From IMG/VR virus record IMGVR_UViG_3300032893_000002, positions 46,668 through 110,667 of that record: a DNA stretch of 64,000 nt; one strand, 5' to 3'. Origin of the DNA: a virus. How positions within the stretch are numbered: the first letter of the stretch is position 1; each line of letters starts with the position of its first letter. Below the pieces are notes generated by a model, which searched no databases, was not told where the DNA came from, and worked only from the letters and a program-made list of their open reading frames with translations. Position numbers and translations under genes: made by a program. This document shows positions 1-18,490 of this stretch, one piece after another.

Positions 1-212
1 CAAAGCAAATAGCTGCAGCCAGATTTTTGTTATTGGGTTATGATAATAAAAGTATTGCACTGGAATTGGGCATTGCGGTGCGAACTGTGAAAGCATATAT
101 GGCTGCTTTAATGCGCATATTCCATGTTAAAAATCGTATTGCATTAGCTATAGCATTAATGCGAAATCAAGAGTGGAGTGAATTACTTGTCGACTCATCT
201 TCCAGTATATAA
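1..212 (+). CDS. LuxR/GerE-type HTH transcription regulator, 5'-truncated by window edge
   Basis: Reading frame is open from nt 3 with no upstream stop inside the window. C-terminal LuxR-type HTH signature: SIALELGIAVRTVKAYMAALMRIFHVKNRIALA. Confidence 0.55.
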   Translation, partial: KQIAAARFLLLGYDNKSIALELGIAVRTVKAYMAALMRIFHVKNRIALAIALMRNQEWSELLVDSSSSI

Positions 213-498
213 ATTTAAATATGAAGACGCAAGAAGTTTAACGAAGACTGAGCATAACATACTTGCCTTACTTTGTGAAGGAAAGGTTAATCGCGAAATC
301 GCATGCGAACTAAAATGCACTATAGACGCTATTAAGTGTCGCTTACACAAGATATACGATAAAATAGGAATGTCTTCGAGGCTAGAAGCTGCGATATGGT
401 ATGAAACAAATCGCAACAACTTTCGCCCATTTGAAGAGGAAAATAATACAGATGATATCAATTCTTCTGCCGACGAGAAAGCGGCCTGCAAATCTTAG
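178..498 (+). CDS. LuxR-type HTH domain protein
   Basis: HTH block LTKTEHNILALLCEGKVNREIACELKCTIDAIKCRLHKIYDKIGMSSRLEAAIW is typical of the GerE/LuxR family. Start would be GTG; overlaps the preceding gene end. Confidence 0.5.
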   Translation: MNYLSTHLPVYKFKYEDARSLTKTEHNILALLCEGKVNREIACELKCTIDAIKCRLHKIYDKIGMSSRLEAAIWYETNRNNFRPFEEENNTDDINSSADEKAACKS

Positions 499-1165
499 AC
501 GATTAGTTACTTCTATCCGGGAAACATCCGTAACTAATCCCGAGATCGTTGTTTACATCGACGACGATGATAAAGAGTCAATTCCAACAGCTGAAGAACT
601 TAAACTAGTAATTCTCGTTGGCCCAAGAATTATCATGACCGACTATTGGAATAAATGTTATGATGTTTGTTCGGGCGATATTGTCATGCAAATGGGCGAC
701 GATGTGGTATTTAGAACTCCCGGTTGGGATAAAATGGTCGAAGAAGAGTTTGAAAAATGGCCAGATAAACTTATTGTAGTTCATGGTGATGATCTTGATC
801 CAAATTTTAGAAGTAGATTTGGAACACATTCCTGTGTGCATCGAAAATGGGTGGAGACTTTAGGTTATTTTATTCCTCCATTCTTTTCTTCTGATAATGG
901 AGATAGATGGCTGATGGCTGTTGCGGATTTTCTTGATCGTAGAATATTTTTGCCGTTTGTTACTGAGCATATGCATTTTAGGACACAGAAAGCAAAAATG
1001 GATTCTACATATATAGAAAGATTAGAAAGGCACGAAAAAGATAATCCAAATCAGCTCTATATTGATCTGATTGATCGCAGACTTGAAGATGCTGCAAAAA
1101 TTCAGCAAGCAATAGACGAATATGAATCCTGTCAAAAACAAGAAGAAAGTAATATACACGCTTAA
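452..1165 (+). CDS. GT-A fold glycosyltransferase-like protein (paralog 1 of 3)
   Basis: Start at MISILLPTRKRPANLRRL with GAGGAAAA RBS. Motifs LPTRKRP...VVYIDDDD...MGDDVVF (DxD). Paralogous to 17636..18487 and 19309..19977. Confidence 0.5.
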   Translation: MISILLPTRKRPANLRRLVTSIRETSVTNPEIVVYIDDDDKESIPTAEELKLVILVGPRIIMTDYWNKCYDVCSGDIVMQMGDDVVFRTPGWDKMVEEEFEKWPDKLIVVHGDDLDPNFRSRFGTHSCVHRKWVETLGYFIPPFFSSDNGDRWLMAVADFLDRRIFLPFVTEHMHFRTQKAKMDSTYIERLERHEKDNPNQLYIDLIDRRLEDAAKIQQAIDEYESCQKQEESNIHA

Positions 1166-1814
1166 TATCAACTATTCAAAAGATGTCACGAATCTAACTT
1201 ATCCCCTTCTGAGACGATATGCCAAGAAGATAGATGCTGATTTTGAAGTTATTACTTCAAGAAAATTTCCCGATTGGCCTATCGTATACGAAAAACTTCA
1301 AATCTATAACTTAGCCAGAGAACAGAATAGAGAATGGATCTACTATATCGATTCTGATGCTCTAATACATCCTGATTTTTTTGATCTAACAGATCTTGTC
1401 CAAAAAGATACAGTTATTCATACAGGAGCAGATTTTGCTCCTATTCGCTGGAAAATGGACGATTATTTCCGTCGCAACAGACGATATATTGGATCATGCA
1501 ATTGGTTTACAGTTGCTAGTAATTGGTGTTTAGATTTATGGCGTCCTCTAGACGATTTAACCCCAGAGCAAGCACTGGCTAATATTTTTCCAACAATACA
1601 AGAGGCCAAGACAATAATTACTAAAGAACATCTGATAGATGATTATACTCTAAGTAGAAATATTGCTAAGTATGGTCTCTACTTCACATCTGTTGCAGAA
1701 ATCTTAAAGAGAACAGATCCGGGAGGTAATTATTTCTGGCATCAGTATACAATTCCTATAGCTGAGAAAGTTAAAGAGTTAAAACAAATGCTCCAAATAT
1801 GGAATTTGATTTAG
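1122..1814 (+). CDS. Nucleotide-sugar transferase, GMA12/MNN10-like (GT34-like)
   Basis: REWIYYIDSDALIHPDFFDL resembles the EWIWWLDxDALI motif of galactosyl/mannosyl transferases. Confidence 0.4.
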   Translation: MNPVKNKKKVIYTLNINYSKDVTNLTYPLLRRYAKKIDADFEVITSRKFPDWPIVYEKLQIYNLAREQNREWIYYIDSDALIHPDFFDLTDLVQKDTVIHTGADFAPIRWKMDDYFRRNRRYIGSCNWFTVASNWCLDLWRPLDDLTPEQALANIFPTIQEAKTIITKEHLIDDYTLSRNIAKYGLYFTSVAEILKRTDPGGNYFWHQYTIPIAEKVKELKQMLQIWNLI

Positions 1815-2600
1815 ATGGCGAATAATAATAAATTTAATAACTCGACAGGAAATCCTCAGACCTGGACCTGCCCGGATGGTGTTGTTACTGTTATAGTTGA
1901 AGCCTGGGGGGCAGGAGGCGGAGGAGGAGGATCCAATAACAACGCAACTACTGGGTCAGCTAGCGGAGGAGGCGGAGGAAGTTATTCGAGATCTGTTTTA
2001 AATGTAGTTCCAGGAACGAGTTATACGTTTAATATCGGTGCGGGAGGTAACGGAGGTACAGGAGGAAATACTAACGGGAGTAACGGAGGAACAACAGATT
2101 TTAACAATAGTCAGATCACGTGTAATGGAGGTGTAGGGGGACGAAATGGAGCAGTTACAACAGCTGGAAATGCTTTAGGAGGCGCTGTAGGAACAGGAAC
2201 ATTTACATTTAAAGGCGGAAATAGTGGTAACGGTCATACTACGACAGGTAGCGGAGGCGGAGGGGCAGGAGGAGGAAATGCTAACGGAAGCTCAGGCACA
2301 AATCCCGGTGCAGGAGCAGGAGGAACAGCTAATGCTAGTTTTACTCCTGGAGGAAATGGCGGAGGTGGCCGACCTGTAAATAATAACGCCGCTAACGCTG
2401 CTGCAAACGGAGTAATTCCAGGAGGAGGAGGCGGAGGAGCCGGAAGAACAAATAACTCTAACACAAATGCTCCCGGCGGCAATGGCGCAAATGGACAGAT
2501 TATTCTTTGGTGGGTTCAACCTGAATTTTTAGGTACTACATCTAATCCTAAGAATCAAAATGAAATGGGTTACTTACCGATTTCGATAATCGGATATTAA
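1815..2600 (+). CDS. Glycine-rich repeat protein (structural or fiber-like)
   Basis: About 45% Gly with GGxGG, GNGGTGG and PGG repeats. Tight coupling to the next gene (TAAtATG). Confidence 0.45.
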   Translation: MANNNKFNNSTGNPQTWTCPDGVVTVIVEAWGAGGGGGGSNNNATTGSASGGGGGSYSRSVLNVVPGTSYTFNIGAGGNGGTGGNTNGSNGGTTDFNNSQITCNGGVGGRNGAVTTAGNALGGAVGTGTFTFKGGNSGNGHTTTGSGGGGAGGGNANGSSGTNPGAGAGGTANASFTPGGNGGGGRPVNNNAANAAANGVIPGGGGGGAGRTNNSNTNAPGGNGANGQIILWWVQPEFLGTTSNPKNQNEMGYLPISIIGY

Positions 2601-2601
2601 T

Positions 2602-3942
2602 ATGGCAATTGCTCAAGACCATACTACACCTGTTCAGAATATTGTATCAGGAACACCTTTTTCGGTTCCATCAAGTACTGGTAATCTTAGTGTAGTTGCC
2701 TTTATCGGAGGAGCAACTGCCACTATAACTAGTGTTACAGATAACCAGTCTAATGCTTATTATCCAGCTATCACGTTTAATGAAAGCGCTGGAGCGTTCA
2801 TTAACATGGCAATCTGGTATGCTCCCGGAGCAGCGACAGGAATAACGTCAATTACAATTAATTATATAAATGGCGGAGGAGGCAATTACGAAGATGCTGT
2901 TATTTATGATTTTTCTGGAGCGCATCCAACAAACCCTCTTGTAAATGGAGATTATACTGACGATATAGGAACAGGCTCGACTGCTACAACAAATCCTGTT
3001 GGTCCGGCTCTTAGTTATCCTTATGGCGGAGGAGCAGCGCTTTCAATTCTCCACGGCGGAAATGTAAGCTCAGTTGCTTCACCTTATACATTAGATTTTA
3101 AAGGTTCATCAGGATCTGAGGCAGAAGTTGGATTTGCTAGTATGGTATTTGGATCTCCGGGAACATTTGCTCCAAGTTGGACTACAACATCAGGTGCATG
3201 GTTTAGTGTTGTAGTTTTATTTGCTTCTAATACAGGTCCAAATAATCTTAGATTCGCTAAAGGGAAAACAGCTATATTTGGTAATTCGGTTACAACTGCC
3301 AATTCTCTTACTGTTACTAACGGAGATCTTGTAGTAATAGTAGCATCAGCTGATCCAGGTAAATCTTCAATTCCGCCCGCTTTTACAGATAATGTTTCAA
3401 ATTCATATACAACGATTTCTGCTATTAATCCGTATGTGGGAGAAACAAATGATGGAATACTTTTTGCGGGATATGGAATAATTGGTAGTTCAGCAGGAGC
3501 ATGTTTTTGGAATTTTAATCACGATGCAAATGAGGGAAATGTAATATACGTAATAGTAATAACGCCATCAGTAACACCAACGTTTAATGCTATAGGAACA
3601 GGATTTGAAGCCAGTTCTGTAACACACTTTACTGCTGCTTCTTGTTCTCCTACAGCAGGCGATTATCTGTTTGCGGCACTAGCTTCTTATGGAGCAGTTG
3701 CGCCACAAAGTTTTTCTGCAAATGGCAGTTGGATTTTAGGTCCAAATGAAGGCGATGGAACTTACTATATCGACGTAGCAGTTGAATTCCAGCTTAGTGC
3801 TGTAGGCGGTTCTACAACTGATGATTTTACAGCATTATCAGGAACAGGAAATGAAGTAATTTTTTCGTTTAGTTTACCGGCAGGAAGTATTTCGCTTTAT
3901 CCAAATGATATGACACCAGGAACTCTAGTAACTTGGCGATAA
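2602..3942 (+). CDS. Member 1 (two-domain) of tandem paralog family with conserved C-terminal YPNDMTPGTLVTW motif
   Basis: S/T/N/G-rich. Contains the GNLxVV...ITSVxDxxxN core twice. C-terminus LYPNDMTPGTLVTWR is shared with the next four genes. Confidence 0.6.
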   Translation: MAIAQDHTTPVQNIVSGTPFSVPSSTGNLSVVAFIGGATATITSVTDNQSNAYYPAITFNESAGAFINMAIWYAPGAATGITSITINYINGGGGNYEDAVIYDFSGAHPTNPLVNGDYTDDIGTGSTATTNPVGPALSYPYGGGAALSILHGGNVSSVASPYTLDFKGSSGSEAEVGFASMVFGSPGTFAPSWTTTSGAWFSVVVLFASNTGPNNLRFAKGKTAIFGNSVTTANSLTVTNGDLVVIVASADPGKSSIPPAFTDNVSNSYTTISAINPYVGETNDGILFAGYGIIGSSAGACFWNFNHDANEGNVIYVIVITPSVTPTFNAIGTGFEASSVTHFTAASCSPTAGDYLFAALASYGAVAPQSFSANGSWILGPNEGDGTYYIDVAVEFQLSAVGGSTTDDFTALSGTGNEVIFSFSLPAGSISLYPNDMTPGTLVTWR

Positions 3943-3967
3943 AATAATATGGAAAGAGTGTAAGTAG

Positions 3968-4726
3968 ATGGCTTTTATTCATATTCAAGGCGGCACAGCA
4001 AATACAGGAGGAGTTGTTGGAACATCATTCACAATAGTACTATCGAACACTCCGATTGTCGGAAATTTAGTATGCGTAGGGATAGTGTTCATCAATGCAA
4101 CTAATACAAGTCCTGCATCTATATCTATATTAGACGGCAATAATAACAGATATGTTATTACGCCAAATTCACCAGCAGCAGGAACATTTCCAAATGCGGG
4201 TTCAGGCGGCACATCACCTGAGTATGGATGGTTATATCTATGCTATTTCCTCGTAACTGATTTACCTTCTTCGCAAATTATTGTTACATGGGCAAATAGC
4301 ATGTATGCTCAGGGTTGGGCAGAAGAATTTTCTGTTAGTGCAGGCGTTATTAGCTTCGATAAAGATGTTGCTGGAACAGTACAAACTGCATCGGGAACTG
4401 TAGCAAATATTCCTTCAATAACGCCTCTTGCAGCCAATTCACTATTGTACAGTGTTGGATGCGATGATTATAATGGTTTCGTTGCTCCGACAGCAGGAGG
4501 AACACTAGGTGCTTGGATAGGCGGCGCTGGCGGACCCGACTTAGCTATAACGGGAGGCAATACAGAATACGATTTAGCTGCAACAGGATCGACTAGTGTT
4601 AATTACACTTGTGGAGTAAGTGGAGATATTTACATTGCATCTGCAATGTCTTTCTACACTATGCCTACAGAGATTTTTCCTCCAGATATGACACCCGGAA
4701 CTTCCGTAGCTTGGAGGTTCAAATAA
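3968..4726 (+). CDS. Member 2 of tandem paralog family (MAFIHIQGG N-terminus, PPDMTPGTSVAWRFK C-terminus)
   Basis: N-terminus matches member 4. Conserved C-terminal motif. Confidence 0.6.
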   Translation: MAFIHIQGGTANTGGVVGTSFTIVLSNTPIVGNLVCVGIVFINATNTSPASISILDGNNNRYVITPNSPAAGTFPNAGSGGTSPEYGWLYLCYFLVTDLPSSQIIVTWANSMYAQGWAEEFSVSAGVISFDKDVAGTVQTASGTVANIPSITPLAANSLLYSVGCDDYNGFVAPTAGGTLGAWIGGAGGPDLAITGGNTEYDLAATGSTSVNYTCGVSGDIYIASAMSFYTMPTEIFPPDMTPGTSVAWRFK

Positions 4727-4728
4727 AG

Positions 4729-5436
4729 ATGATTACAATAGATGCGATTTCTATTCCGGCTCAATTTGATGCTATCAACCCATCTTTTAATATCACTCCG
4801 ACGAAGGCAAACTGTTTTCTTGTTGTTACATTCGGAATGGCGGGGCCAAACGTAAACATAACTATTTCCTCAGTTATTGATAATGCTTCAGGCGGAACAA
4901 ATTTATATCAACAAGTTCCGGGAGCTTACTCATTTGTTAACGGCGGCGACGGTGAAATTTTCAGTTTTGATATATGGTACTGTTCTAATTCTAAAGCAAA
5001 TGCAAATCAGCTTTCGGCAAATCTTTCTGCAGAAGCTAATACGCAGATTGTTGTGTATCAACTGTATGGTCTGAATTTAGGCGAATCTCCTGAAGCAGCA
5101 GTTGGAATATCTAATGGATCATTTACAGGTTTATCGTCATTTTCAACTCCGCCAATTACGACATCAGCTTTCTCTTCTTTTATTGTTGTAGTAGGCGATG
5201 CTACATGGGGTTTTGCTAAAGTAGCATTACCTTGGTCAGGATTACCTGATGCAAATGGAAACTACCTCGCAACTACTACAGCATACTTAATTACAGATGG
5301 TCCAGGAACTTATATCCCAACTTGGCAAACACAAAATACAAATAACTATGCGATGAGTGGCGCATCGTTTCAAGGTGATCAGATTCTAGCTTTCGATACA
5401 ACACCTGGAACAAATATTGGATGGAGTGTTGAGTAA
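4729..5436 (+). CDS. Member 3 of tandem paralog family (C-terminus DTTPGTNIGWSVE)
   Basis: ATG at 4729 preceded by GGAGG. Core FLVVTFG...ITISSVIDNASGG. Degenerate C-terminal motif. Confidence 0.55.
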   Translation: MITIDAISIPAQFDAINPSFNITPTKANCFLVVTFGMAGPNVNITISSVIDNASGGTNLYQQVPGAYSFVNGGDGEIFSFDIWYCSNSKANANQLSANLSAEANTQIVVYQLYGLNLGESPEAAVGISNGSFTGLSSFSTPPITTSAFSSFIVVVGDATWGFAKVALPWSGLPDANGNYLATTTAYLITDGPGTYIPTWQTQNTNNYAMSGASFQGDQILAFDTTPGTNIGWSVE

Positions 5437-6107
5437 TGGCTTTCGTTCATATACAAGGTGGAATAAGTGGAACAGGATCAGCTATATTGACATTAACAAA
5501 CAATCCCGGACAAGGGAATCTTGTTTGTTTTGGCTATTTGTTTGATACTACTGCTGGTGTCATTACATCAATTGTAGATAGTAATGGGAATCCCTATTCT
5601 ATTGTCACTACGACAGATAGTGAAGTAGTAGGACTTGCATTCTTGCTTAATGCTCCTGCTAATGCCAGCAAAACAATTTTTCTTAACTTTACTGGCAGTC
5701 CTAGTTTTTATGAGGTGTGGGGCGATGAATTTTCGTGCGGAACATCAACAGTATTCGATAATGTTGTGGCTGCTTCAGGAAACGCAGTAGCTGGTATTAT
5801 TAATACACCAGTAATTACTCCAAAACTTTCCGGCGGTGAGTTATTATATAGTTTATGCTCGCCCAATGTTGTTTTAACGGCTCCAGGATTAGGTGTTGTA
5901 TATAACGGATGGACGGGAACTGCGATTGATGCAATATACGGAACAGGAGGAGAATACATACTTAGTGCAAATTCGCCTCAAGCTGTGGCTTATGTTAATA
6001 ACGATCCTACAGGAGCTTATACTGCAATTGCAATGGCTTTTTCAGAAGGACAGATTGCTCCTTCTGATATGACGCCTGGATGTAACTTAGTAATGGAGAT
6101 TGGATAA
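5436..6107 (+). CDS. Member 4 of tandem paralog family (MAFVHIQGG N-terminus, PSDMTPGCNLVMEIG C-terminus)
   Basis: TAATG overlap with upstream gene. Motifs GNLVCFG...ITSIVDSNGN. Confidence 0.6.
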   Translation: MAFVHIQGGISGTGSAILTLTNNPGQGNLVCFGYLFDTTAGVITSIVDSNGNPYSIVTTTDSEVVGLAFLLNAPANASKTIFLNFTGSPSFYEVWGDEFSCGTSTVFDNVVAASGNAVAGIINTPVITPKLSGGELLYSLCSPNVVLTAPGLGVVYNGWTGTAIDAIYGTGGEYILSANSPQAVAYVNNDPTGAYTAIAMAFSEGQIAPSDMTPGCNLVMEIG

Positions 6108-6832
6108 TGGCTGTCGAATTTGACGCAGTTGGACCTAATTCGTCAGGTACAGGCGGAACAGGAGTAAATATAGCTGCAACTCCTATTAATTGGAATCATA
6201 CTTGTTCCGGAACAAATGGATTATTAGTTGTATGTGTTACATATGGAGGAGGAGATAATCCAACATTCTCAGACTTTAGTGTAACATACAATAGTATTCC
6301 TATGCTTCAAGGAGCATTTCAATACAACGCAAATGATGGTACAGATTGTGCGATGCTGTTCTATCTTATTGCGCCCGCATCAGGAACGAATCAAGTTTCT
6401 CTATTTTCTAATTCGGGCTTCCTTTATGGGGATTTTCAGTGTGGATCTGTGAGTTACACAGGTGTAGATCAAATTACAGGGATAAGAAATGCTGTTAGTA
6501 ATGCAAGTTCAGGCGCATCTTCTCCAGCAACATTAACAGTATCAAGTGCTGTAGGGAACATGGTAGCATTTGGTTTAGGGTCAGGTGCATATAGCGGAAC
6601 TTCAAACCAAACGGACAGATGGCAGTTTAATCAAAATGGTGATACGGGCGGAAGCAATGGACTTCAATCTGATGCTCCAGGCGCGGCTTCTGTTTCGTTT
6701 AGCGATTCAATTAATGGCGGTGCAGGTGATTATTGGGGTATTGTAGGATTTGATATAATTGCAGCATCATCGTTATCAATTTATCCTGAAGATATGACGC
6801 CCGGATCAGAAGTAACGTTTAGAATTATTTAA
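6107..6832 (+). CDS. Member 5 of tandem paralog family (C-terminus YPEDMTPGSEVTFRII)
   Basis: TAATG overlap with upstream gene. Same core pattern and C-terminal motif. Confidence 0.6.
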   Translation: MAVEFDAVGPNSSGTGGTGVNIAATPINWNHTCSGTNGLLVVCVTYGGGDNPTFSDFSVTYNSIPMLQGAFQYNANDGTDCAMLFYLIAPASGTNQVSLFSNSGFLYGDFQCGSVSYTGVDQITGIRNAVSNASSGASSPATLTVSSAVGNMVAFGLGSGAYSGTSNQTDRWQFNQNGDTGGSNGLQSDAPGAASVSFSDSINGGAGDYWGIVGFDIIAASSLSIYPEDMTPGSEVTFRII

Positions 6833-9800
6833 TGTACCGTCAATATCAATACGACGTATTTACTGAAGGACTGCCTCCAGCCCCTGAAGTTGTAGAAGCT
6901 AGTAGCTGGGTGCAACCTCAAAGCCAGCCTATCCCGAATAACTTTGTATCGAAGTTGAAGGCTGGTGTAGTAGCTGCTCTCGTCGCTTCAGGAATATTCT
7001 ACACTGCTCTTGCTCCGCAAGTAGTAACAGCTAGCGGAATATCAGCAGACTGTAGCTTCTTTGTAATTAATAGAAGCTATGCTGCGCAAATAGCTTCAGG
7101 TGTATATTCAGTTCCATTCGTTCCGGCGGCAGCGGCAGCAGCAGGCGGATCAGGCGCATCTCAACAACTTCTAAGCTTAAAAGCTAGAGGTACGCAAGCT
7201 CATCTTCAGACAAGTACGTTTTGGAGTGCCTTCACTCCATCTGCACCTTCACAAGGCGGCGGCTTTTCTGCAGAAACAATAAGATTGCGATTCCAGCGAC
7301 GCTTCGCTTCGCAATCTCCAAGCGTTTTCTGGAATACCTTTACTCCAGCAACTGCAATTACTCCTGTAATTGCTCCATGCGCAGAATATCCAGATTCATT
7401 CTATAAGAAACGCTATTTAACAGAAGCACTAGATTCTTCTGATGGACAAGCTGTAATTGGTACTCTTCCTCCTTCGATTCAAACAGCAGTAGGAGGAGCG
7501 CAAGGAAAATCTACAGTAATCCGTATTAATCGCAGTTATGCAGCTCAAATAGCCTCAGGCGAAGTATTTGTTCCTGTTGTTGCAGCTCCGACACCAACTG
7601 GATGGTTAGGAGATCAGAATCAGCTTCCGCGAGGTAAACAATCTCTTGCTGTAGCTGAGCAGCAAGCTGTATTCTTCACTGCTCTTGCTCCGCAAGTAGT
7701 AACAGCTAGCGGAATATCAGCAGACTGTAGCTTCTTTGTAATTAATAGAAGCTATGCGTATACATCACCGTCTGTATTTTGGAATCCTAATACTCCTGTT
7801 TTACCTCCAACTGGATGGTTAGGAGATCAGAATCAGCCTCTTCCAATTAGAAAAGGATTAGCTGCAGGAGCGCAGCAGTATTCTCCTGGTGTTGTTCAAG
7901 CAGGTTCTACTCCAAGTACATTTGGATTAGTATGCGCTGAGAAGCAGCAGGTATCTCAACGATATCTAGCCGCTAATCAACAGGCTGTATTTTATACTTC
8001 TTTTGTTCAAGTATCTGTACTTAACTGGCTGCCTTCATATCCGGATTTCTTTAAACCGAAATTTTCAGCTGGCTTATATATTTATTCAACTCAAGCTAAT
8101 GTTCCGGTAGAACAATTAGCGTCTGCTGATTATCCGGATTGGATTGCTGGGAAGAAGTATTTAACAAGTAATCAACAAGCAGCATTTGGTCCGCTATCTA
8201 CATCTCCTGAAACTGTATTTGTATCAAGTTGGGCGCAACCACAATCCCAACCATATCCATATAGAAGAAGTCTACAAACAGCTCAGCAGATAGCTGTATT
8301 TTGGAATACTTCTACTCAACCTGAAGTCGTAGAAAGTGCTAGCTGGTATCCAACTTATCCGCAGCCTTTCCCGACAAAACCTTATCTCAGTACCGCTTCA
8401 CAGCAATATTATTTCTTCGGTAAACAGGTTGCGCAGGAATATCTTGTAGGAAATACTCCTGTATCGCAGCCAAGCTTTAAGCAAAGAGCAGTTGCTGTTT
8501 ACGAACCAGCTTCTAACTTCATATTTACTCCTGCTCAGACGTTTAATGCATGGCTGCCTGCTTATCCTGATAAAGTTTATAGTAGACCTTATCTCCTTGC
8601 TGCACAACAGCAAGCTGTATTTGGACCTTTATCTACAGATCAAGAAACTGTATTTGTAAGTAGTTACGTACAACCCCAATCACAGCCTTATCCATATAAG
8701 CGCAGTCTACTGACAGCGCAGCAGCAAGCAACATTCTGGAATACAAGTACTGCGACTGAAACAGTATTAGTCAGTTCTTGGGTACAGCCACAATCTCAAC
8801 CATATCCGTATAGAAAAGCTCAACTAACTGCTAATCAGCAGGCTTTGTTCTGGAATACAAGTACTCAGCCTGAAACAGTATTTGAGAGTAGTTGGCAGGG
8901 TGTTCAAAGTCCAGCTCTTCTCAATAGAAAAGTACAGCAGCCCGATTCACTGAGTTTTGTTTCAGATATCAATCTGGCTACAGTAGTTCTTCCAGATAGA
9001 AGAGTTACTGTTCCTGCAATAGCAGTCTATCTACCTTGCTCTACTTGGTTAGCTCAGCCAACAACGCAAGTATTCCTTGATTGGCAACAGCCGCAATCGC
9101 AACCGTTATCTACACGGCGTATACAGCCAGTTGATGTAGTAACAGTCGTTCCTCAGCATATCGGACTAGATTGGCAACCTGTATATCCAGATGCTGTAAT
9201 AGGAAGACGATTCCTTACAGCAGATCAGCAATGGTTGGCCTGGAATACTTCTACTCAGTCCGAAACTGTATTTGAAAGCAGTTGGCAAGGTATCACGTGG
9301 CAACCGTGGCCAGCTAAATGCTATTTATCCGCTGCTCAGCAACAGGCATTCTTCTGGCAACCTAATACTCCAGGCGACTTTACTTTCCTGTTGCATTGGG
9401 AACCGATTTATCCGCAACCTTTCCCAAAGAAACTGTATCCAGCTGCAGCGCAACAACAAGCGGTCTTCTGGAATACATCAACACAGCCTGAAACTGTATT
9501 AGTAAGTTCATGGGTACAGCCTCAAAGTCAGCCTTACCCATATAAACCCTATCGCCCTGCAGCCTTGTATCCATCTGTATTCTGGAATACAAGTACAGCA
9601 CCTGAAACTGTTTTTGTTAGCAGTTACGTACAGCCGCAGACGCAGCCTTATCCTTATAAAAAAGCTATTCAACCCTGCGAACAACTTACATTCGTTTGGG
9701 AAGAAGCAACTGCTGACGAAGTTTCAATAGATTGGGTCCAGCCTCAATCTCAGCCTTATTCTTACAGAAAAGTACTTACTACTGCAGAGCAGCAAGCAAC

Positions 9801-11484
9801 ATTCTGGAATACATCAACAAGTCCAGAAACTGTACTTGTTAGTAGTTGGGTACAACCTATCAGTCAGCCTTATCCGTATACAAAGGCTTTACAGACTGCA
9901 AACCAACAAGCGGCGATTTGGAATATATCGACGCAACCTGAAACAGTATTAGTTTCTAGTTGGGTACAACCTCAAAGTCAACCGTATCCATATAAACGAG
10001 CAGAGTTAACAGCTAATCAACCAGCCGCTTTCTGGAATACATCAACAAGTCCAGAAACGATTACTGTAGATAAATGGCTGCCTGTTTATCCGCAACCATT
10101 TCCTGTTAAACAGTACATATTAACTGCCAATCAACAAGCATTCTTCTGGCAACCAAATACGCCAGGAGATTTTAGCTATTTATACCATTGGGAGCCTGTA
10201 TACCCACAACCGTTCCCGGTAAAGAGATACTTACAGACAGCTAATGTACCAGCATTCTTCTGGAACACATCGACGCAACCGGAAAGTGTACTCGTTTCAA
10301 GTTGGGTACAATCGCAGAGTCAACCATATTCTTACAAGCCGTATCGTCCGGCTTCGTTATACCAGAGCACGTTCTATGCTCCATTCGTATCAGAAAATGT
10401 TCAAGTAAGTAGTTGGGTTCAAGCACAATCACAACCAAGAATTCAACAAACTACTATTGCTTCTCAGACAAGTTTCTTCTGGGGAGAAACAACTTCTGAT
10501 GCGGGAACATGGTATCCTGTCGTTTCACAGCAGCAAGTTAAGATATTTGCGCGTGCTGTATATGAACCTGCTGTTAGCTGGAATCCAAATACTCCAGTTC
10601 AAGTTACCCTTGACTGGCTGGCGGTTTCGGAACAACAGCTAACGAAACGCAACATACAGCAATATGCTTCTGTATTCTGGAATGCATCTACCGCTCCAGA
10701 AACTGTATTTATTTCTAGCTGGGAACCTGTTATTGCGCAACCAGTATTTACAAAACCTGCGCAATATCAAGCATTATTCTGGAGTGGATTTACACCTTCG
10801 CAACAAGTTGTTATACTAGATTGGGATACTGTATATCCGCAACCTGCTAAGCAGAGATTTGCAGCGAGCGTATATTCATATTCGATTCAAATCCATACTC
10901 CAGTTATTCAAATTGCTACGGCTGATTATCCAGACCAAATTCCTGGAAGACAGTATCTTACAGCAAATCAGCAAGCAACGTTCTGGGATCCGAATACAAC
11001 ATTCGGAGAAACTGTACTTGTTAGTAGTTGGGTGCAGCCTCAATCTCAACCGTATCCTTATACGCCATACAGTCCGGCGAGCGTGTATCCTGTTGTCTTC
11101 TGGAATACATCAATTAATCCAGAGACTGTATTTGTATCTAGTTGGATACAGCCAATTGAGCAGCCTTATCCGTTCGTTAAGGCTTTGCAACCAACAGAAC
11201 AATTAACGGCAGTATGGAGTACATTTACTCCGCCGCCACCAGTTGCTCCTGATTTTGGATGGTATCAGCAAGTTGTTCAGCCTTATCCACATTCGCGCTT
11301 CCTAGAAGCCTTACAGCAAAGCGTTACGGGCAGTAACTTCCCATTGCCTAATGCCGTAACGCAATTTGTTCAAGGAACTGGATTCGTAACGCAAGTTGTA
11401 AATGTACAAGGTTCGATAGAAAATACTGCTGCCGCTACTGGATCAATAACGACTATTAGCGGCACGGGGTCAGTAGACCAATAA
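6832..11484 (+). CDS. Giant 1550-aa P/Q/W-rich tandem-repeat protein
   Basis: More than 25 copies of a ~37-aa unit ETVxVSSWVQPQSQPYPYK...LTANQQAxFWNTSTxP. Coupled to the upstream gene by TAATG. Confidence 0.7.
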   Translation: MYRQYQYDVFTEGLPPAPEVVEASSWVQPQSQPIPNNFVSKLKAGVVAALVASGIFYTALAPQVVTASGISADCSFFVINRSYAAQIASGVYSVPFVPAAAAAAGGSGASQQLLSLKARGTQAHLQTSTFWSAFTPSAPSQGGGFSAETIRLRFQRRFASQSPSVFWNTFTPATAITPVIAPCAEYPDSFYKKRYLTEALDSSDGQAVIGTLPPSIQTAVGGAQGKSTVIRINRSYAAQIASGEVFVPVVAAPTPTGWLGDQNQLPRGKQSLAVAEQQAVFFTALAPQVVTASGISADCSFFVINRSYAYTSPSVFWNPNTPVLPPTGWLGDQNQPLPIRKGLAAGAQQYSPGVVQAGSTPSTFGLVCAEKQQVSQRYLAANQQAVFYTSFVQVSVLNWLPSYPDFFKPKFSAGLYIYSTQANVPVEQLASADYPDWIAGKKYLTSNQQAAFGPLSTSPETVFVSSWAQPQSQPYPYRRSLQTAQQIAVFWNTSTQPEVVESASWYPTYPQPFPTKPYLSTASQQYYFFGKQVAQEYLVGNTPVSQPSFKQRAVAVYEPASNFIFTPAQTFNAWLPAYPDKVYSRPYLLAAQQQAVFGPLSTDQETVFVSSYVQPQSQPYPYKRSLLTAQQQATFWNTSTATETVLVSSWVQPQSQPYPYRKAQLTANQQALFWNTSTQPETVFESSWQGVQSPALLNRKVQQPDSLSFVSDINLATVVLPDRRVTVPAIAVYLPCSTWLAQPTTQVFLDWQQPQSQPLSTRRIQPVDVVTVVPQHIGLDWQPVYPDAVIGRRFLTADQQWLAWNTSTQSETVFESSWQGITWQPWPAKCYLSAAQQQAFFWQPNTPGDFTFLLHWEPIYPQPFPKKLYPAAAQQQAVFWNTSTQPETVLVSSWVQPQSQPYPYKPYRPAALYPSVFWNTSTAPETVFVSSYVQPQTQPYPYKKAIQPCEQLTFVWEEATADEVSIDWVQPQSQPYSYRKVLTTAEQQATFWNTSTSPETVLVSSWVQPISQPYPYTKALQTANQQAAIWNISTQPETVLVSSWVQPQSQPYPYKRAELTANQPAAFWNTSTSPETITVDKWLPVYPQPFPVKQYILTANQQAFFWQPNTPGDFSYLYHWEPVYPQPFPVKRYLQTANVPAFFWNTSTQPESVLVSSWVQSQSQPYSYKPYRPASLYQSTFYAPFVSENVQVSSWVQAQSQPRIQQTTIASQTSFFWGETTSDAGTWYPVVSQQQVKIFARAVYEPAVSWNPNTPVQVTLDWLAVSEQQLTKRNIQQYASVFWNASTAPETVFISSWEPVIAQPVFTKPAQYQALFWSGFTPSQQVVILDWDTVYPQPAKQRFAASVYSYSIQIHTPVIQIATADYPDQIPGRQYLTANQQATFWDPNTTFGETVLVSSWVQPQSQPYPYTPYSPASVYPVVFWNTSINPETVFVSSWIQPIEQPYPFVKALQPTEQLTAVWSTFTPPPPVAPDFGWYQQVVQPYPHSRFLEALQQSVTGSNFPLPNAVTQFVQGTGFVTQVVNVQGSIENTAAATGSITTISGTGSVDQ
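7002..7082 (+). repeat. 81-bp direct repeat, copy 1 (identical copy at 7677..7757)
   Basis: Identical nucleotide strings encoding TALAPQVVTASGISADCSFFVINRSYA, 675 bp apart and in frame within the giant repeat gene. Confidence 0.75.
7677..7757 (+). repeat. 81-bp direct repeat, copy 2
   Basis: Same sequence as 7002..7082. Confidence 0.75.
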
Positions 11485-12098: not shown

Positions 12099-12410
12099 AT
12101 GAAATTTCGATATCTACTATTATTTCTATTGCTTAATCAATATTCATTTGCGAGCCGTCAAATAGTTTTAACTTGGAATACCTCCGATGGTGCTATAACA
12201 TATAATATTTATCGAGGAACAGATTGTTCTTCGCTTTCATTAGTATCGACAGGCGTTGCAATTACAACATGGACAGATACAGATGTATTAAGAGGGCAAC
12301 AGTATTGCTATGCTGTTACAGCAGTCAATTCTAATGGAGAAAGCGCATACAGTAATACGTATTTAATTCGTATCCCAATGTCAAATTTAACGATGATGGG
12401 GAGTGGCTAG
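12099..12410 (+). CDS. Secreted fibronectin type III (FN3) domain protein
   Basis: Signal peptide MKFRYLLLFLLL. FN3 signature LTWNTSDGAITYNIYRG...YCYAVTAVNSNGES. AAGGAAA RBS. Confidence 0.55.
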   Translation: MKFRYLLLFLLLNQYSFASRQIVLTWNTSDGAITYNIYRGTDCSSLSLVSTGVAITTWTDTDVLRGQQYCYAVTAVNSNGESAYSNTYLIRIPMSNLTMMGSG

Positions 12411-13392
12411 AATGTCAGCTATAGTTTCACCACCTGTATCATTTACATTTAGAGCTTTACAGCAAGCCCTTCTTAGCTGGACACTTACTGACCAAAATGG
12501 TAATCCCATCTCCGGAGCTACTGTAAATGCAACACTATATGAAAATTTAAATCTTCAAAATCCTACTGACTATCCAGGTACGCCTGTTGCAGGATTTACA
12601 AATGTTAACTTAGTTGAGACTCCAGCAGCTTCCGGAATTTATGTAGCAACTCTTCCTGCTACGATTAATCCAGATCCGGCAACGATGGGATTTATAACTG
12701 TTATTGTTGCGACTTCGGGCAGTACACCTCTTGGTACATGGAATATTCCGACAGTTATAGTCCCAGCTTCAAATACAATCGACTTAACAACTTTAAGCGA
12801 TGTTAAAGCTTGGCTCGGAATTCCCACTGTTAATACAGATAATGACGAAGTAATTCAAGCGTTGATTACAGGATTTAGTCAATACGTTATCAACCGCACT
12901 GGTGTTGCATCATTTAATTCCATCAATCAATATATAGAGATTTACGATGGTAACGGTTCCCAAAGATTATTCTTAAGGAATTATCCAATTACAGCAATTA
13001 TATCTGTGTTGATAGGTTCTTACTCAGTTCCGCTTTCCTCTGCGGTGAATGCGCCAGGAATATTTATAGAGCAACTGAAACGTTCTATTGCATTTAGAGC
13101 CGGCAGCGTAGGTTGGTTTCCATCAGCAGGGTTATTTCCTTATACTTTTGCTCCTGGTATCGGCAATATTCAAGTTACGTATACAGCGGGATTTGCGCAA
13201 GTTCCCTACGATCTACAAGAAGCTTGTTTCAAGGCTGTTGCTATAAATTATACACGAAAGAGTACAATTGATCAAGGCAGTAAAACATTAAGTGCGTCAG
13301 GTGGAGGGACAGGAACCGTTGCATTTAGAGCATGGGCATTGCCCCCAGAAATTGAGCGCGTCATAATGTATTACTCGCGATACGGTAAGTAA
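12403..13392 (+). CDS. Head-tail connector (gp6/HK97-like) domain protein with N-terminal extension
   Basis: LSDVKAWLGIPTVNTDNDEVIQALITGFSQYVINRTG matches the head-tail connector signature (VK..LRID..D..I..LI.AA..Y.E..TGR). Confidence 0.5.
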   Translation: MARMSAIVSPPVSFTFRALQQALLSWTLTDQNGNPISGATVNATLYENLNLQNPTDYPGTPVAGFTNVNLVETPAASGIYVATLPATINPDPATMGFITVIVATSGSTPLGTWNIPTVIVPASNTIDLTTLSDVKAWLGIPTVNTDNDEVIQALITGFSQYVINRTGVASFNSINQYIEIYDGNGSQRLFLRNYPITAIISVLIGSYSVPLSSAVNAPGIFIEQLKRSIAFRAGSVGWFPSAGLFPYTFAPGIGNIQVTYTAGFAQVPYDLQEACFKAVAINYTRKSTIDQGSKTLSASGGGTGTVAFRAWALPPEIERVIMYYSRYGK

Positions 13393-14664: not shown

Positions 14665-15414
14665 ATGGCTGTAATTGAGTTCGGTACAGGTCTCTTGTAC
14701 GGCGTCCCGACATCAGGCAATCTGCCTACCAATCCTACTCCCATAAGACTGCTCTTACAGGAAGTATCGGTTGATTTCAAAGGCGATTTGAAGAAACTTT
14801 ATACTTTATACCAGTTGCCGATCGCAACTGCTAGAGGTAAAATCGACGTAGCTGGAAAGGCGAAGATCGTTAACTATGATCCAGATCCTATCAACCAGCT
14901 CTTTTGGGCACAGTCAATTTCACCAGGTATTGAAGTTCCTGTAGACCAAGAATTATCAACAGCGAATACGACATATACAGTTGTTAATGGTGCGACCTTT
15001 GCGCAAGATCGCGGCGTAACATATGCAACTGGAACAAAAGCAGGGCAAGTATTGCTTGCAAATACAACTGCTGCTGCTGTAGGTTACTACGCAGTTAACA
15101 CAACATCTGGTCAGTATACTTTTAACGCTGCAGATAGCACTACTGCAATGTATATCAGTTATACATATACCAATTCGACACGCGGTAAGACAATTTCTCT
15201 TTCTTCACAGGTTATGGGCTATGCTCCAGTTTGTACAATGGACGTTTGGGGTACGTTCCGTAACAAAGTGCTTGGAATTCGCCTTAACGCTTGCACACTT
15301 GGTCAATGGACCTATCCGACGAAGCTGGAAGACTTCTGGATGTCAGATATTACATTTGACGCTAATTTAGATGCCAGCAACAATTTGGGAAAAATTTTTG
15401 CTGACACCTTTTAA
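14665..15414 (+). CDS. Putative major tail (tube) protein
   Basis: 249 aa, own promoter and strong RBS, upstream of chaperone and tape measure genes. S/T-rich Ig-like C-terminal part. Confidence 0.45.
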   Translation: MAVIEFGTGLLYGVPTSGNLPTNPTPIRLLLQEVSVDFKGDLKKLYTLYQLPIATARGKIDVAGKAKIVNYDPDPINQLFWAQSISPGIEVPVDQELSTANTTYTVVNGATFAQDRGVTYATGTKAGQVLLANTTAAAVGYYAVNTTSGQYTFNAADSTTAMYISYTYTNSTRGKTISLSSQVMGYAPVCTMDVWGTFRNKVLGIRLNACTLGQWTYPTKLEDFWMSDITFDANLDASNNLGKIFADTF

Positions 15415-15498
15415 ATCAATAAGTTACGCCTTCTACTTAAAGTTACTTTTTTTGTAGATATTTGCTGACACTTATTAGAAGATATAATAATTTAGCAC

Positions 15499-15536: not shown

Positions 15537-16451
15537 TTGGAGGTCATTTTATTGACTACAACACGACTTTCACATAAACAGCTAATCGAAAAAATTCGTA
15601 AAAACTTAACAAATTTCAATCCTGTACAAAAATGCGATCCCAAAAAAGGTAAAACATATGAGGAGTATTATGGACAGGAAGATGCAAAACTTATACGAGA
15701 GAAGATGCGTGATTCGCATCTTGGGCAAGAGCCAGGTAACAAAGGCAAACCTTCTCCATTTAAAAACAAAACTTATGAAGAAATAGGCAGAGGTCCAAGT
15801 CCGTTACTAGGACGCGAGCGACCACAAGAAGATCGAGATAAAATTAGTAAAGGTCATTTACTAAGATTAGGTAAAGATAAACCTTCGGAAGAGCGTGATG
15901 GACCACTCACCAGCAGATGGCGCGAGCAGGTTAAGAAACGAGATAACTATACATGTCAATGCTGTGGAGTTAAGCAAGAAGAATTGCTAAGAATAGTTGG
16001 AGATATTACATCGTGGCTTCATGCGCATCATATAAAATCTTGGGCAGAATTTCCAGAGCTTAGGTTTGAAGTATCAAATGGAATTACGCTTTGTTGGCCT
16101 TGCCACTTAAACGTCGAAGGCAAACAGATTAGCTGTCCAGAGCCGCCTCTGCAACAAGTCAAAGTCAAAAACATCAAGACTAGAGGTAAAACGCTAGAAG
16201 AAGTTTATGGATTAGAACGTGCCGCAGAGATAAAGCAACGGCTAAGGCAAAGTCATTTAGGTAAGCCAACAGGGAGAAAAGGCGTTAAGCGTCCTGGAAT
16301 AGGCGGCCGCAAAAAAGGAAGTATTCCACATAATAAAGGGAAGACGAATATCGAAATTTATGGAGTTGAAAAGGCTAAACAGCTAAGTTTAATTGCTGCA
16401 GAGAATGCGCGAGTAAATAGGAATAGATTAGGTACAGGCATTTTTCAATGA
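15537..16451 (+). CDS. Free-standing HNH homing endonuclease (likely starts at TTG 15552)
   Basis: HNH motif CQCCGVK...HAHHIKSWAEF...NGITLCWPCH. Repeated basic K/R-G modules. Confidence 0.7.
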   Translation: MEVILLTTTRLSHKQLIEKIRKNLTNFNPVQKCDPKKGKTYEEYYGQEDAKLIREKMRDSHLGQEPGNKGKPSPFKNKTYEEIGRGPSPLLGRERPQEDRDKISKGHLLRLGKDKPSEERDGPLTSRWREQVKKRDNYTCQCCGVKQEELLRIVGDITSWLHAHHIKSWAEFPELRFEVSNGITLCWPCHLNVEGKQISCPEPPLQQVKVKNIKTRGKTLEEVYGLERAAEIKQRLRQSHLGKPTGRKGVKRPGIGGRKKGSIPHNKGKTNIEIYGVEKAKQLSLIAAENARVNRNRLGTGIFQ

Positions 16452-17116
16452 ACTGGCAAGATATTCCAATATTCATTAATAATTGTAATCATCTCGATAT
16501 CGGCTTTCGGCATCTCGTCGATTGGTTAGTTAAGTCAGGAAGTAAACGAATAGAGGTGATTGATAATGCATCTACATATCCAGCTCTTTTATATTACTAC
16601 CAGAAAGAATGTCCTGTAAGAGTTACGCGAATGATGCGTAATTTGGGTCCTCAAGCATTTTGGCATGGACATTTTAATTCCGAATTTAAAGATGGCGATT
16701 ATTACGTAGTTACAGATTCAGATGTTGTTCCTGCGCAAGAATGTCCTTTTGATTTAGTTGACAAACTTGTCAATGTATTTGAAAAATACGATATTAAGCA
16801 TTGTACAAAAGTTGGTCCGGGAATTCGAATTGATAATCTGCCTGATCATTATGCTCGCAAAGCTGATGTAATTAGACACGAATCACAATTTTGGAAAACA
16901 CTAGTAGATGAGAATTTATATGACGGAGCTGTAGATACGACATTTGGTTTGTATAGAACAAAAGCATTTGTCGAACCCGGTCCTCCACAATTCCGCTTAG
17001 GTTTTCCATATGTTATTGAGCATAGACCTTGGTATATAGATAGCAACAACAGGCATATAGAAGACGAATACTATGCTGCGCATATTAATCGAAGTTGGAG
17101 TTGTTGGAGTAGATAA
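16448..17116 (+). CDS. Hypothetical, possible DxD glycosyltransferase-like protein
   Basis: YYVVTDSDVVP DxD-like motif. Sits in the glycosyltransferase block. Confidence 0.3.
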   Translation: MNWQDIPIFINNCNHLDIGFRHLVDWLVKSGSKRIEVIDNASTYPALLYYYQKECPVRVTRMMRNLGPQAFWHGHFNSEFKDGDYYVVTDSDVVPAQECPFDLVDKLVNVFEKYDIKHCTKVGPGIRIDNLPDHYARKADVIRHESQFWKTLVDENLYDGAVDTTFGLYRTKAFVEPGPPQFRLGFPYVIEHRPWYIDSNNRHIEDEYYAAHINRSWSCWSR

Positions 17117-17131
17117 ATCTTTATAAAAAAC

Positions 17132-17159
17132 TTGACATTAGCAAGTAAGTCAATATAAA
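17132..17159 (+). promoter_or_regulatory. Sigma70-like promoter candidate
   Basis: TTGACA-N16-TATAAA, ~130 nt upstream of 17292. The leader contains inverted repeats. Confidence 0.35.
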
Positions 17160-17291
17160 ATCAACTCTTAGTCGACTTGCGGCGAGAACACGCTGGCCAG
17201 TAAAAGAGCTCTAAGTCTGGAGCTGAGCTACGCAGGTTGCAAATTTCTGTGGTAAATTCAATTATAAAATTCAAACAGATAGGAGTCGTAT

Positions 17292-17630
17292 ATGGATGCA
17301 TACGAATTTGGTAAAGTTTTAAAAGATAGTAATTTTGTTTTTGGTGCAGGTGCAGCAGAAGCTGCATGCGCGCTGCGTGAACTCGCTGATAAGCTTGAAC
17401 AAGAAACTGTGGTGATTCAAAGTTGTCGTGTTACGTCGGAAGTTAGCGACAACGAATTTGCCACAACCAAACTTGAATTATGTTTGTCAGAAAAACGAAA
17501 AAGACAAGTTGCTATTACGCCAGATAAATTGCATGAAATACAAACAATTACGAGTATGCCAATAGAACCGCCTTCGCAAGACTTTTTACAAAGTATCGAA
17601 ATTGCAGAGTCGTTAAAGTATAATCACTAA
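17292..17630 (+). CDS. Hypothetical acidic protein
   Basis: ORF with AGGAG RBS. No motif recognised. Confidence 0.35.
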   Translation: MDAYEFGKVLKDSNFVFGAGAAEAACALRELADKLEQETVVIQSCRVTSEVSDNEFATTKLELCLSEKRKRQVAITPDKLHEIQTITSMPIEPPSQDFLQSIEIAESLKYNH

Positions 17631-17635
17631 TTACA

Positions 17636-18487
17636 ATGTCGAAACTATTTCATAAAGAAGTAGCTTTTACAGATCGGCTGTCTATAGTATTTCCAACAAG
17701 GAATAGACCGAATAATATTCGGAGACTTTATCAATCCCTAGTAGATACTTGTACAGTGTTGCCTGAAGTAGTACTTTACATCGATGACGATGATAAAGTC
17801 AGTATGCCGGTAGCTAAGGAGTTAGGCATTGCTGCTATTCAGGGACCGCGACGAATGCTTGCCGAATGTTACAATGAAATAGCTTATACTACATCATCAG
17901 ATTTAATTATGTATGCAGCAGATGATTTAGTATTTAGAACCAAAGATTGGGATTCAGCAGTACGACAGGTATTTAATAGGCAAGAAGATAAAATTCTTGT
18001 TGTACATGGAGACGATAAAAGTCATGGCCATACAGAACATGCTACTCACGGAATTTTACATAGAAGATGGGCAGAAACAGTTGGTTACTTTCTGCCGCCC
18101 TACTTCGGTGCTTGGGTAGACAACTGGATTACTGCTGTAGCAAATGCGCTTGGTCGTCGAGTATATGTTCCGTTTGTTAACGAGCATATGCACTATACCG
18201 TACAGAAAGCGCCGTTAGATGCTACATACGAAGAATCGCGGCCAAGACAGAACGCGGATATAGAAAAGTATAAGAATTTGAAAAATAAACGTCTTGAAGA
18301 TATTCAAAAGCTTTGGGATGTGATGTCTGATAAAACAACATTAACTCCGGTACAGGATATAGTTCATGTTGTTCAAGAACGTAAATCTACAGCGTTAGCT
18401 TGTTGCCCTTCCTGTCAGGCTGTGTGCGTTGTAGTAACAAATGGCAGGAATCAATGTAATCAGTGTGGTAGACAATTTAATCCATAG
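17636..18487 (+). CDS. GT-A fold glycosyltransferase-like protein (paralog 2) with C-terminal zinc ribbon
   Basis: Motifs FPTRNRPNNIRRL...VVLYIDDDD...AADDLVF. C-terminal CCPSC...CNQCG. Confidence 0.5.
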   Translation: MSKLFHKEVAFTDRLSIVFPTRNRPNNIRRLYQSLVDTCTVLPEVVLYIDDDDKVSMPVAKELGIAAIQGPRRMLAECYNEIAYTTSSDLIMYAADDLVFRTKDWDSAVRQVFNRQEDKILVVHGDDKSHGHTEHATHGILHRRWAETVGYFLPPYFGAWVDNWITAVANALGRRVYVPFVNEHMHYTVQKAPLDATYEESRPRQNADIEKYKNLKNKRLEDIQKLWDVMSDKTTLTPVQDIVHVVQERKSTALACCPSCQAVCVVVTNGRNQCNQCGRQFNP

Positions 18488-18490
18488 AAA

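Follow-up and report, generated by a model that had tools for sequence, protein, structure and literature searches.

What do sugar transferases encoded among the virion genes of an uncultured phage act upon? We addressed this question for a 64,000-nucleotide stretch of viral DNA (IMG/VR record IMGVR_UViG_3300032893_000002, positions 46,668 to 110,667; hereafter the window), in which two overlapping open reading frames (ORFs), ORF1 and ORF2, lie immediately upstream of the gene for a glycine-rich (Gly-rich) protein. An initial annotation, made from the DNA letters, had described both as glycosyltransferase-like, placed them with four further candidates in the structural region and proposed that they serve virion glycosylation. 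Our analysis assigns ORF2 to an uncurated, phage-only family of glycosyltransferases that recurrently abuts the polyglycine tip domain of tail fibres in unrelated phages. We consider it roughly an even bet (probability about 0.5) that ORF1 and ORF2 glycosylate virion proteins, the Gly-rich fibre tip protein being the prime acceptor, a reading that we infer from genomic context, fold and composition.

Both ORFs were present where they had been called (Table 1), as were the motifs named for them: PTRKRP, YIDDDD and GDDVVF in ORF1, and EWIYYIDSDAL in ORF2. A longer ORF1 reading frame starts at 401, and we regard 452 as the likelier start because a GAGGA ribosome-binding site lies ~11 nucleotides upstream of it. 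ORF1 passes the Pfam profile PF00535 Glycos_transf_2 narrowly, at 25.6 bits against a gathering cut-off of 23.3, which is backed by a match to phrog_14945 'glycosyltransferase' (2.9e-31). In an alignment of 50 sequences, comprising ORF1, 47 metagenomic homologues and two paralogues from the window, D37, D39 and D40 (YIDDDD), D83 and D84 (GDD), D151, E172, H173, H175 and D184 are all invariant. A sequence search of solved structures with the ORF1 family profile gave no usable match. When translated ORF1 was compared with 50,697 phage records (tblastn, E <= 1e-5), matches came from Streptomyces, Arthrobacter and Pelagibacter phages only, with no Mycobacterium phage among them. As judged from its sequence, ORF1 is a bona fide metal-dependent enzyme of the glycosyltransferase A (GT-A) fold with a putative GT2 activity, which is probably inverting.

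For ORF2, a likeness to GMA12/MNN10 (GT34) enzymes had been suggested; fold comparison upheld this likeness and Pfam membership did not. The GT34 profile PF05637 scored 16.6 bits, below its cut-off of 23, and covered residues 32-99 only, so that we do not file ORF2 as a GT34 member; PHROGs and NCBIfam returned no match. Modelled from 72 homologues with high confidence (predicted local distance difference test score, pLDDT, 95.5; predicted template modelling score 0.91), ORF2 forms a single Rossmann-like alpha/beta/alpha domain around a central mixed sheet, a clear GT-A fold. D77 and D79 of the IDSDAL motif follow directly after strand 72-76 and are invariant in the 72 family sequences, as are H83, H170 and H207. 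The DxD-type residues, whose loss the initial annotation had named as one observation that would refute it, are therefore retained throughout the ORF1 and ORF2 alignments.

The closest solved fold is domain 1 of A64R (Protein Data Bank, PDB, entry 2p6w; 13% identity), likewise a GT-A domain with a DXD motif, and the model also resembles a solved GT34 enzyme, plant XXT1 (PDB 6bsu). Viral structure neighbours of ORF2, none of them more than 15% identical to it, are annotated as GT34, GT8 or nucleotide-diphospho-sugar transferases. From both GT34/PF05637 (GMA12/MNN10, XXT1) and GT8 (LgtC), however, the family is set apart by identities of at most 15%, by motifs of its own and by its restriction to phages. 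The relation to A64R is undetectable at the sequence level, a profile search of solved structures having given no usable match. ORF2 is best described as an uncurated family within the GT8/GT34/A64R-like structural group, and its closest folds make a retaining mechanism likely.

More than 1600 ORF2 homologues were found in metagenomes, nearly all labelled 'hypothetical' and without a Pfam domain, some of them fused at the C-terminus to Methyltransf_24. An exhaustive profile search yielded 769 representatives at 50% identity, of which 165 scored below 1e-30, and tblastn against cultured and other phage records returned a single match, 33% identical, in the single-cell record of a marine virus. 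The family occurs in just 18 contigs out of those of 185,579 species genomes, and all 18 belong to metagenome-assembled bins from very different phyla. Homologues remain 50-60% identical on contigs whose other genes have no similarity to the window, and this constancy across bins of such different phyla fits an acceptor that is phage-borne and not host-specific. A search of the available literature library found no description of the ORF2 family, of PF21722 or of a link between ORF2 and Gly_rich_2 domains.

The ATG of the Gly-rich gene directly follows the ORF2 stop codon. Its product matches the PF21722 Gly_rich_2 profile above cut-off and has the fold of a solved fibre tip (model pLDDT 85.9; four solved structures matched), and it carries 8 N-x-S/T motifs. 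A tblastn search of the protein against phages gave no match, probably owing to the low-complexity filter. In phage Pam3, the corresponding TNF-like and glycine-rich module makes up the distal portion of the fibre, where conserved glycine stems bear hypervariable polar tips that are proposed to bind the receptor (PMC9608196).

We then surveyed 86 non-redundant loci carrying an ORF2 homologue, in which ORFs were called mechanically and searched with the ORF2 family profile and with an iterated profile seeded with the Gly-rich protein; PF21722 was independently confirmed for the window and for loci L001, L011 and L013. A Gly_rich_2 gene is the immediate neighbour of ORF2 in 29 of the 86 loci (downstream in 24, upstream in 5), although such genes account for just 39 of the 1566 genes in these loci (P ~7e-17). 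Adjacency persists in 20 of 39 independent contexts when loci sharing at least two other gene families are grouped together (P ~2e-16). Most pairs are separated by -26 to +30 nucleotides. The Gly-rich domain is N-terminal in downstream neighbours (residues ~1-240 of proteins of 261-2702 residues) and C-terminal in upstream ones, an orientation rule obeyed by 14 of 14 proteins longer than 400 residues. The domain thus lies at the protein end facing ORF2, and the enzyme gene always touches the domain-coding end. The link between transferase and Gly-rich protein that had been drawn from the window therefore recurs in unrelated phages.

Gly-rich domains linked to ORF2 also differ in composition from those that are not. 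They form a subfamily of their own: pairwise scores average 165 among linked domains and 87 between linked and unlinked ones, and 97% of the top-5 neighbours of a linked domain are linked as well. We compared 13 linked with 24 unlinked representatives at 50% identity (Mann-Whitney): Asn makes up 10.7% of linked and 4.4% of unlinked domains (p 2e-6), and N-x-S/T motifs occur at 3.1 against 0.9 per 100 residues (p 3e-5). The motif is in excess over composition-preserving shuffles in linked domains (z 4.9) but not in unlinked ones (z 0.8), the reversed motif giving z 2.3 and 1.2, respectively. Since the linked domains are related to one another, this contrast may be partly inherited. Gly_rich_2 domains were also observed in cellular, surface-type proteins of Bacteroidota (Flavobacterium, Epilithonimonas and Ferruginibacter; P0125, P0134, P0144 and P0161), where they are combined with DUF11 or PKD-like domains; this may point to the phylum of the host or to phage-host exchange.

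ORF1 and ORF2 are embedded in one operon. At the start of the virion arm, a pair of GerE genes, ORF1, ORF2, the Gly-rich gene and five paralogous genes follow one another to position 6832, all overlapping or abutting, with an overlap of 44 nucleotides between ORF1 and ORF2. The two GerE genes, both also called GerE on the 180-kilobase (kb) source contig (L010) in which the exact ORF2 protein is on record, directly precede and overlap the transferase genes. The same pair precedes ORF1-ORF2 in the relatives L113 (1159..1795) and L114 (3543..4146), and in an unrelated 123-kb contig, L011, a GerE pair (15065..15492) follows the ORF2/Gly-rich pair. Its company with the unit in close relatives and in L011 suggests a dedicated regulator pair. 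In the close relatives L113-L115 the order GerE-GerE-ORF1-ORF2 is conserved, with the Gly-rich gene thereafter. The relative L006, of 176 kb, retains an ORF1 orthologue (70% identity) and an orthologue of the first paralogue, and neither ORF2 nor the Gly-rich gene was found within the 10 kb covered. A protein of ~180 residues with an N-terminal signal peptide, absent from the window, is encoded after ORF2 in L113 (3127..3663) and L114 (5544..6086); in L114 its gene separates ORF2 from the Gly-rich gene, and the L113 sequence stops shortly beyond it.

The five paralogues had been noted as a cassette downstream of the transferases, with which we found no wider association. In iterative searches, family members appeared only in close relatives (L006 6985..8298 and L115 9313..9975), and we dropped the cassette as a general partner. 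A member lies directly upstream of ORF2 in L115. Pfam and PHROG scans of the first, second and fourth paralogues gave no match; the fifth was scanned against PHROGs only and the third lay outside these scans.

Four more candidates at 16448..19977 had brought the claimed number of sugar transferases to six, of which five are firm. The exception is 16448..17116, which is merely suggestive (GT2, E 0.035): it had no match in PHROG or NCBIfam, comparing its profile with those of the ORF1 and ORF2 families was of no help, and its status stays weak because tblastn found no match in cultured phages either. Two of the other three are ORF1 paralogues, namely 17636..18487 (45% identical to ORF1) and 19309..19977 (43%), which share 52% identity with each other. 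The third, 18491..19312, is a canonical GT2 enzyme whose best solved relative by sequence is GalT1 (5hea; 2e-10). Zinc ribbons of the type CxxC...CxxC at the C-terminus of 17636..18487 and the N-terminus of 18491..19312 are 36% identical over 25 residues and may represent a shared docking or targeting module. As the initial annotation had it, the transferase genes do lie in the structural region: a head-tail adaptor, tail proteins and a tail-fibre-type protein are encoded in the same arm, and both clusters are flanked by its adaptor, tail and fibre genes.

None of the six candidates has a membrane segment. Their maximum 19-residue hydropathy stays below 1.4, as it does in both small neighbouring ORFs, and reaches 1.25 in 18491..19312, which accordingly has no membrane helix. 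Pfam scans gave no GtrA match, and there is no flippase-like partner. In the absence of membrane segments, a Gtr-like membrane system was rejected, and we count the lack of such segments and of a flippase-like partner in favour of a virion acceptor.

ORF2 homologues also occur in a second context, defined by Methyltransf_24 (as a fusion in 17 loci, as a gene of its own in 12) and/or a radical S-adenosylmethionine (SAM) gene of ~310 codons (23 loci), whose product resembles SPASM-type maturases at its N-terminus. This context is nearly exclusive of the Gly-rich one, with 3 overlaps, and includes L002, L005, L017, L026, L034, L055-L058, L074 and others. In the locus groups examined, ORF2 here follows the major head protein at a distance of 3-4 genes. 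Other neighbours of ORF2 homologues, among them those in head modules with no Gly-rich gene near, are genes for nucleoside-diphosphate-sugar dehydratases/epimerases and GT8 enzymes, and L005 carries NeuB-like and cytidine-monophosphate-sugar-synthetase-like ORFs, as far as their sequences alone can tell. Two very large glycosylation islands were observed: L008, a 268-kb contig, has at 656..11194 three ORF2 paralogues in tandem along with genes for an ORF1-like enzyme, a GT2 enzyme, Methyltransf_21 and two Methyltransf_24 proteins, and L115 at 1800..10681 encodes an SDR dehydratase, a sugar C-methyltransferase, a cupin, GT2 and GT_PLOD enzymes, and then ORF2 and the Gly-rich protein.

We propose that ORF1 and ORF2 are produced, like the fibre tip protein, from the late operon of virion genes. 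ORF2 would move a sugar from a nucleotide sugar to the Gly-rich domain, in the cytoplasm and before assembly, the probable acceptor sites being Asn or Ser/Thr in the N-x-S/T motifs of the distal loops. ORF1 and the 16448..19977 cluster may then extend the glycan or decorate other virion proteins, so that the fibre tip or the virion would be coated with glycan. Enzyme folds, conserved motifs, operon layout, recurrent adjacency and the composition contrast are observations; acceptor, donor sugar, linkage and order of action are meant here as parts of a model, in which the glycan could affect adsorption, stability or shielding. We favour this model because of the operon layout, the orientation rule, the joint absence of ORF2 and the Gly-rich gene from L006, the composition of the linked domains, the head-module context, the parallel with the A064R enzyme discussed below and the constancy of ORF2 across phages whose hosts seem to differ widely. 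A more specific version, which we advance tentatively, is that ORF2 represents a new protein glycosyltransferase family, specific to phages and dedicated to the polyglycine fibre tip, which may travel with this domain as a portable cassette and decorate its N-x-S/T-rich distal loops; some phages would then show their hosts an adhesin covered in glycan, which might tune or mask receptor recognition, and the head-module version, with methyltransferase and radical SAM gene, might decorate capsids.

Several observations weigh against virion glycosylation as proposed. Each claim made for the acceptor is a case of guilt by association. The coupling holds from one side only, as ORF2 abuts just 1 of 32 Gly-rich domains with enough flanking DNA, in a sample drawn by a DNA pattern for W-G-A-G-G-G-G-G, and the cultured phages Pam3 and Bxb1 have a Gly-rich fibre domain without ORF2. 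Conversely, about half of the ORF2 homologues have no Gly-rich gene within 10 kb, and the family is therefore not restricted to a fibre-tip acceptor. Genes of the ORF1 family in the cultured phages Peebs and HTVC008M stand among nucleotide and sugar-nucleotide genes, not virion genes, and the 64-kb window showed no gene for nucleotide-sugar synthesis. The richness of the linked domains in Asn and N-x-S/T could be inherited rather than selected, and we know of no retaining GT-A enzyme that glycosylates Asn.

Another explanation is an acceptor of another kind, such as a different virion protein, a lipid carrier or a small molecule, with adjacency to fibre genes reflecting late co-expression and co-transfer. 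The half of ORF2 loci lacking a Gly-rich gene would fit such an acceptor, as would relatives that carry large sugar-pathway clusters (SDR dehydratase, C-methyltransferase, cupin, GT2, GT8, GT_PLOD). It is hard to see, however, why an enzyme with no direct functional link to the fibre domain should obey the orientation rule in 14 of 14 cases or be absent from L006 together with the Gly-rich gene, and we think this explanation rather unlikely.

The main rival, which we hold to be unlikely, is that the transferases modify the host envelope glycan bound by the fibre tip, blocking superinfection or keeping progeny from sticking to cell debris, and that enzyme and receptor-binding domain move as a cassette. 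An enzyme altering the receptor of the domain would favour adjacency just as well; moreover, 18491..19312 weakly matches GtrB-like O-antigen conversion PHROGs (7e-8), and the relatives of ORF1 in cultured phages keep the sugar-nucleotide company already mentioned. Against this stands the solubility of all six proteins, with no GtrA- or GtrC-like partner. Receptors should also differ between very different phyla, yet ORF2 stays 50-60% identical across them; it occurs in head modules with no receptor-binding gene nearby, and the N-x-S/T enrichment of the linked fibre domains would go unexplained.

Glycosylation of phage DNA at hypermodified bases, as a protection against restriction of the kind known in T-even phages and in others whose DNA is glycosylated, is very unlikely. 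Phage glycosyltransferases often act on DNA (PMC12619734), and this phage does invest in DNA modification, having QueD and QueE-like genes (52061..54265). Gene position and fold neighbours nevertheless speak against a DNA acceptor, as far as 64 of ~180 kb can show, and no pathway for a hydroxymethylated or other acceptor base was seen in the 64-kb window of the ~180-kb contig, where the 7-deazaguanine genes are the only ones of this kind. That ORF2 is a non-catalytic chaperone of the Gly-rich fibre with a transferase-like fold, in the role of Pam3 gp25, is scarcely credible: fibre chaperones are normally encoded beside the fibre gene, as ORF2 is, and Pam3 gp24 needs the separate chaperone gp25 to assemble (PMC9608196), but the DxD and His residues of ORF2 do not vary in 72 sequences, many homologues carry a fused methyltransferase or have sugar enzymes alongside, many loci carry ORF2 without a Gly-rich gene, and its fold is unrelated to the beta-sandwich and helical chaperones described (PMC9608196).

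The window divides into two arms. The plus strand from 1 to ~46 kb forms the arm with virion genes, and a minus-strand arm from ~46 to 64 kb carries replication and DNA-modification genes, among them one for an SMC-like ATPase. The guanine-plus-cytosine (GC) content is ~40%, and a scan for tRNA genes found none. A megablast search of positions 1..8000 against the 50,697 phage records gave no match, which indicates a phage without a cultured close relative. The QueE-like protein matches phrog_2076 at residues 329-534 and has an HNH-endonuclease segment inserted or fused at ~125-300; together with the adjoining QueD gene it points, from sequence, to modification of DNA with 7-deazaguanine, and QueE may harbour an intein or homing element.

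Table 1 Features of the window, in order of position
Feature	Coordinates	Strand	Evidence or remark
GerE/LuxR helix-turn-helix gene 1	27..212	+	As read; truncated by the window start
GerE/LuxR helix-turn-helix gene 2	178..498	+	PF00196 GerE 2.8e-10; overlaps gene 1
ORF1, soluble GT2-type (GT-A) glycosyltransferase, 237 residues	452..1165	+	PF00535, phrog_14945, invariant motifs
ORF2, soluble GT-A glycosyltransferase of an uncurated phage-only family, single domain, 230 residues	1122..1814	+	
Gly-rich protein, TNF-like and polyglycine (Gly_rich_2) tail-fibre tip domain, 261 residues	1815..2600	+	
Five divergent paralogues with a common C-terminal D-M-T-P-G-x-x-V-x-W tail	2602..6832 (2602..3942, 3968..4726, 4729..5436, 5436..6107, 6107..6832)	+	Same operon continued
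Very large proteins	6832..11484 and 20753..29056	+	
Head-tail adaptor	12403..13392	+	Virion arm
HNH endonuclease	15537..16451		Overlaps the start of 16448..17116 by 4 nucleotides
Weak candidate transferase, 222 residues, IDNAS and TDSD motifs	16448..17116	+	GT2 E 0.035, 14.5 bits, below cut-off
ORF1 paralogue, GT2-type, C-terminal zinc ribbon	17636..18487	+	PF00535 24.1 bits; phrog_14945 6.7e-37
Canonical GT2 glycosyltransferase, N-terminal zinc ribbon, no membrane anchor	18491..19312	+	PF00535 98.7 bits
ORF1 paralogue, GT2-type	19309..19977	+	PF00535 31.2 bits; phrog_14945 1.3e-43
Second homing-endonuclease-like gene	29056..29628		
Tail assembly protein	30276..31349	+	Virion arm
Tail protein	31831..37290	+	Virion arm
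Papain-family cysteine peptidase	42934..43701	+	
DnaB-like helicase	49156..51798	-	Split by an intein with a LAGLIDADG domain (Intein_splicing 1e-20, LAGLIDADG_3 5e-15)
QueE-like radical SAM protein	52061..53668	-	
QueD/PTPS	53777..54265	-	
SPFH/Band 7 protein	59957..60871	-	
Thg1-like tRNA-His guanylyltransferase	62852..63643	-	

Self-glycosylation of phage particles is, to our knowledge, documented for just a few mycobacteriophages, the proteins concerned being those of capsid and tail tube. Soluble transferases encoded by the mycobacteriophages Che8, Corndog and Myrna reportedly decorate capsid and tail-tube subunits (work cited in PMC12363180 and PMC12619734). As in those phages, the transferases of the window are soluble and encoded near structural genes; their linked partner is a receptor-binding fibre domain and not a capsid or tail-tube subunit. 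We detected no homology to the Che8, Corndog and Myrna transferases (tblastn, ORF1 and ORF2), and the composition, ~40% GC, suggests as far as it goes a host other than an actinobacterium.

Amongst eukaryotic viruses, the chloroviruses offer a well-studied case of capsids glycosylated by enzymes of the virus itself, and the rhamnosyltransferase A064R of PBCV-1 builds the capsid glycan (PMC9614988). A064R shares with ORF2 a GT-A fold with a DXD motif and has a methyltransferase domain (PMC9614988), as do many ORF2 homologues. It differs in having two transferase domains in addition to the methyltransferase, whereas ORF2 of the window is a single domain and some homologues combine the transferase with Methyltransf_24 only. 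A064R also adds to an N-glycan that the major capsid protein of a eukaryotic virus already bears, whereas the candidate acceptor here is the tail-fibre tip of a bacteriophage. Pam3 gp24 and the 'tail wing brush' protein gp33 of Bxb1 likewise combine TNF-like with glycine-rich domains, but are accompanied by no ORF2-type gene, and the ORF2-linked domains are a subfamily apart, in which Asn and N-x-S/T abound and which is usually located at the protein N-terminus. The Gtr serotype-conversion clusters found in temperate phages (GtrA/GtrB/GtrC) resemble the window in placing a GT2 enzyme near tail genes and through the weak PHROG similarity of 18491..19312, but the window encodes no membrane anchor, flippase or integral-membrane transferase.

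Large aquatic phages have been seen to carry groups of glycosyltransferases, which were left unassigned (PMC12619734). What is new here is a putative virion self-glycosylation aimed at the receptor-binding fibre tip. If true, self-glycosylation would extend to many uncultured phage lineages and to the very surface that decides host range. The ORF2 family provides an annotation rule for more than 1600 'hypothetical proteins', and a glycan that influenced adsorption or shielded the tip would matter for host-range prediction and for fibre engineering.

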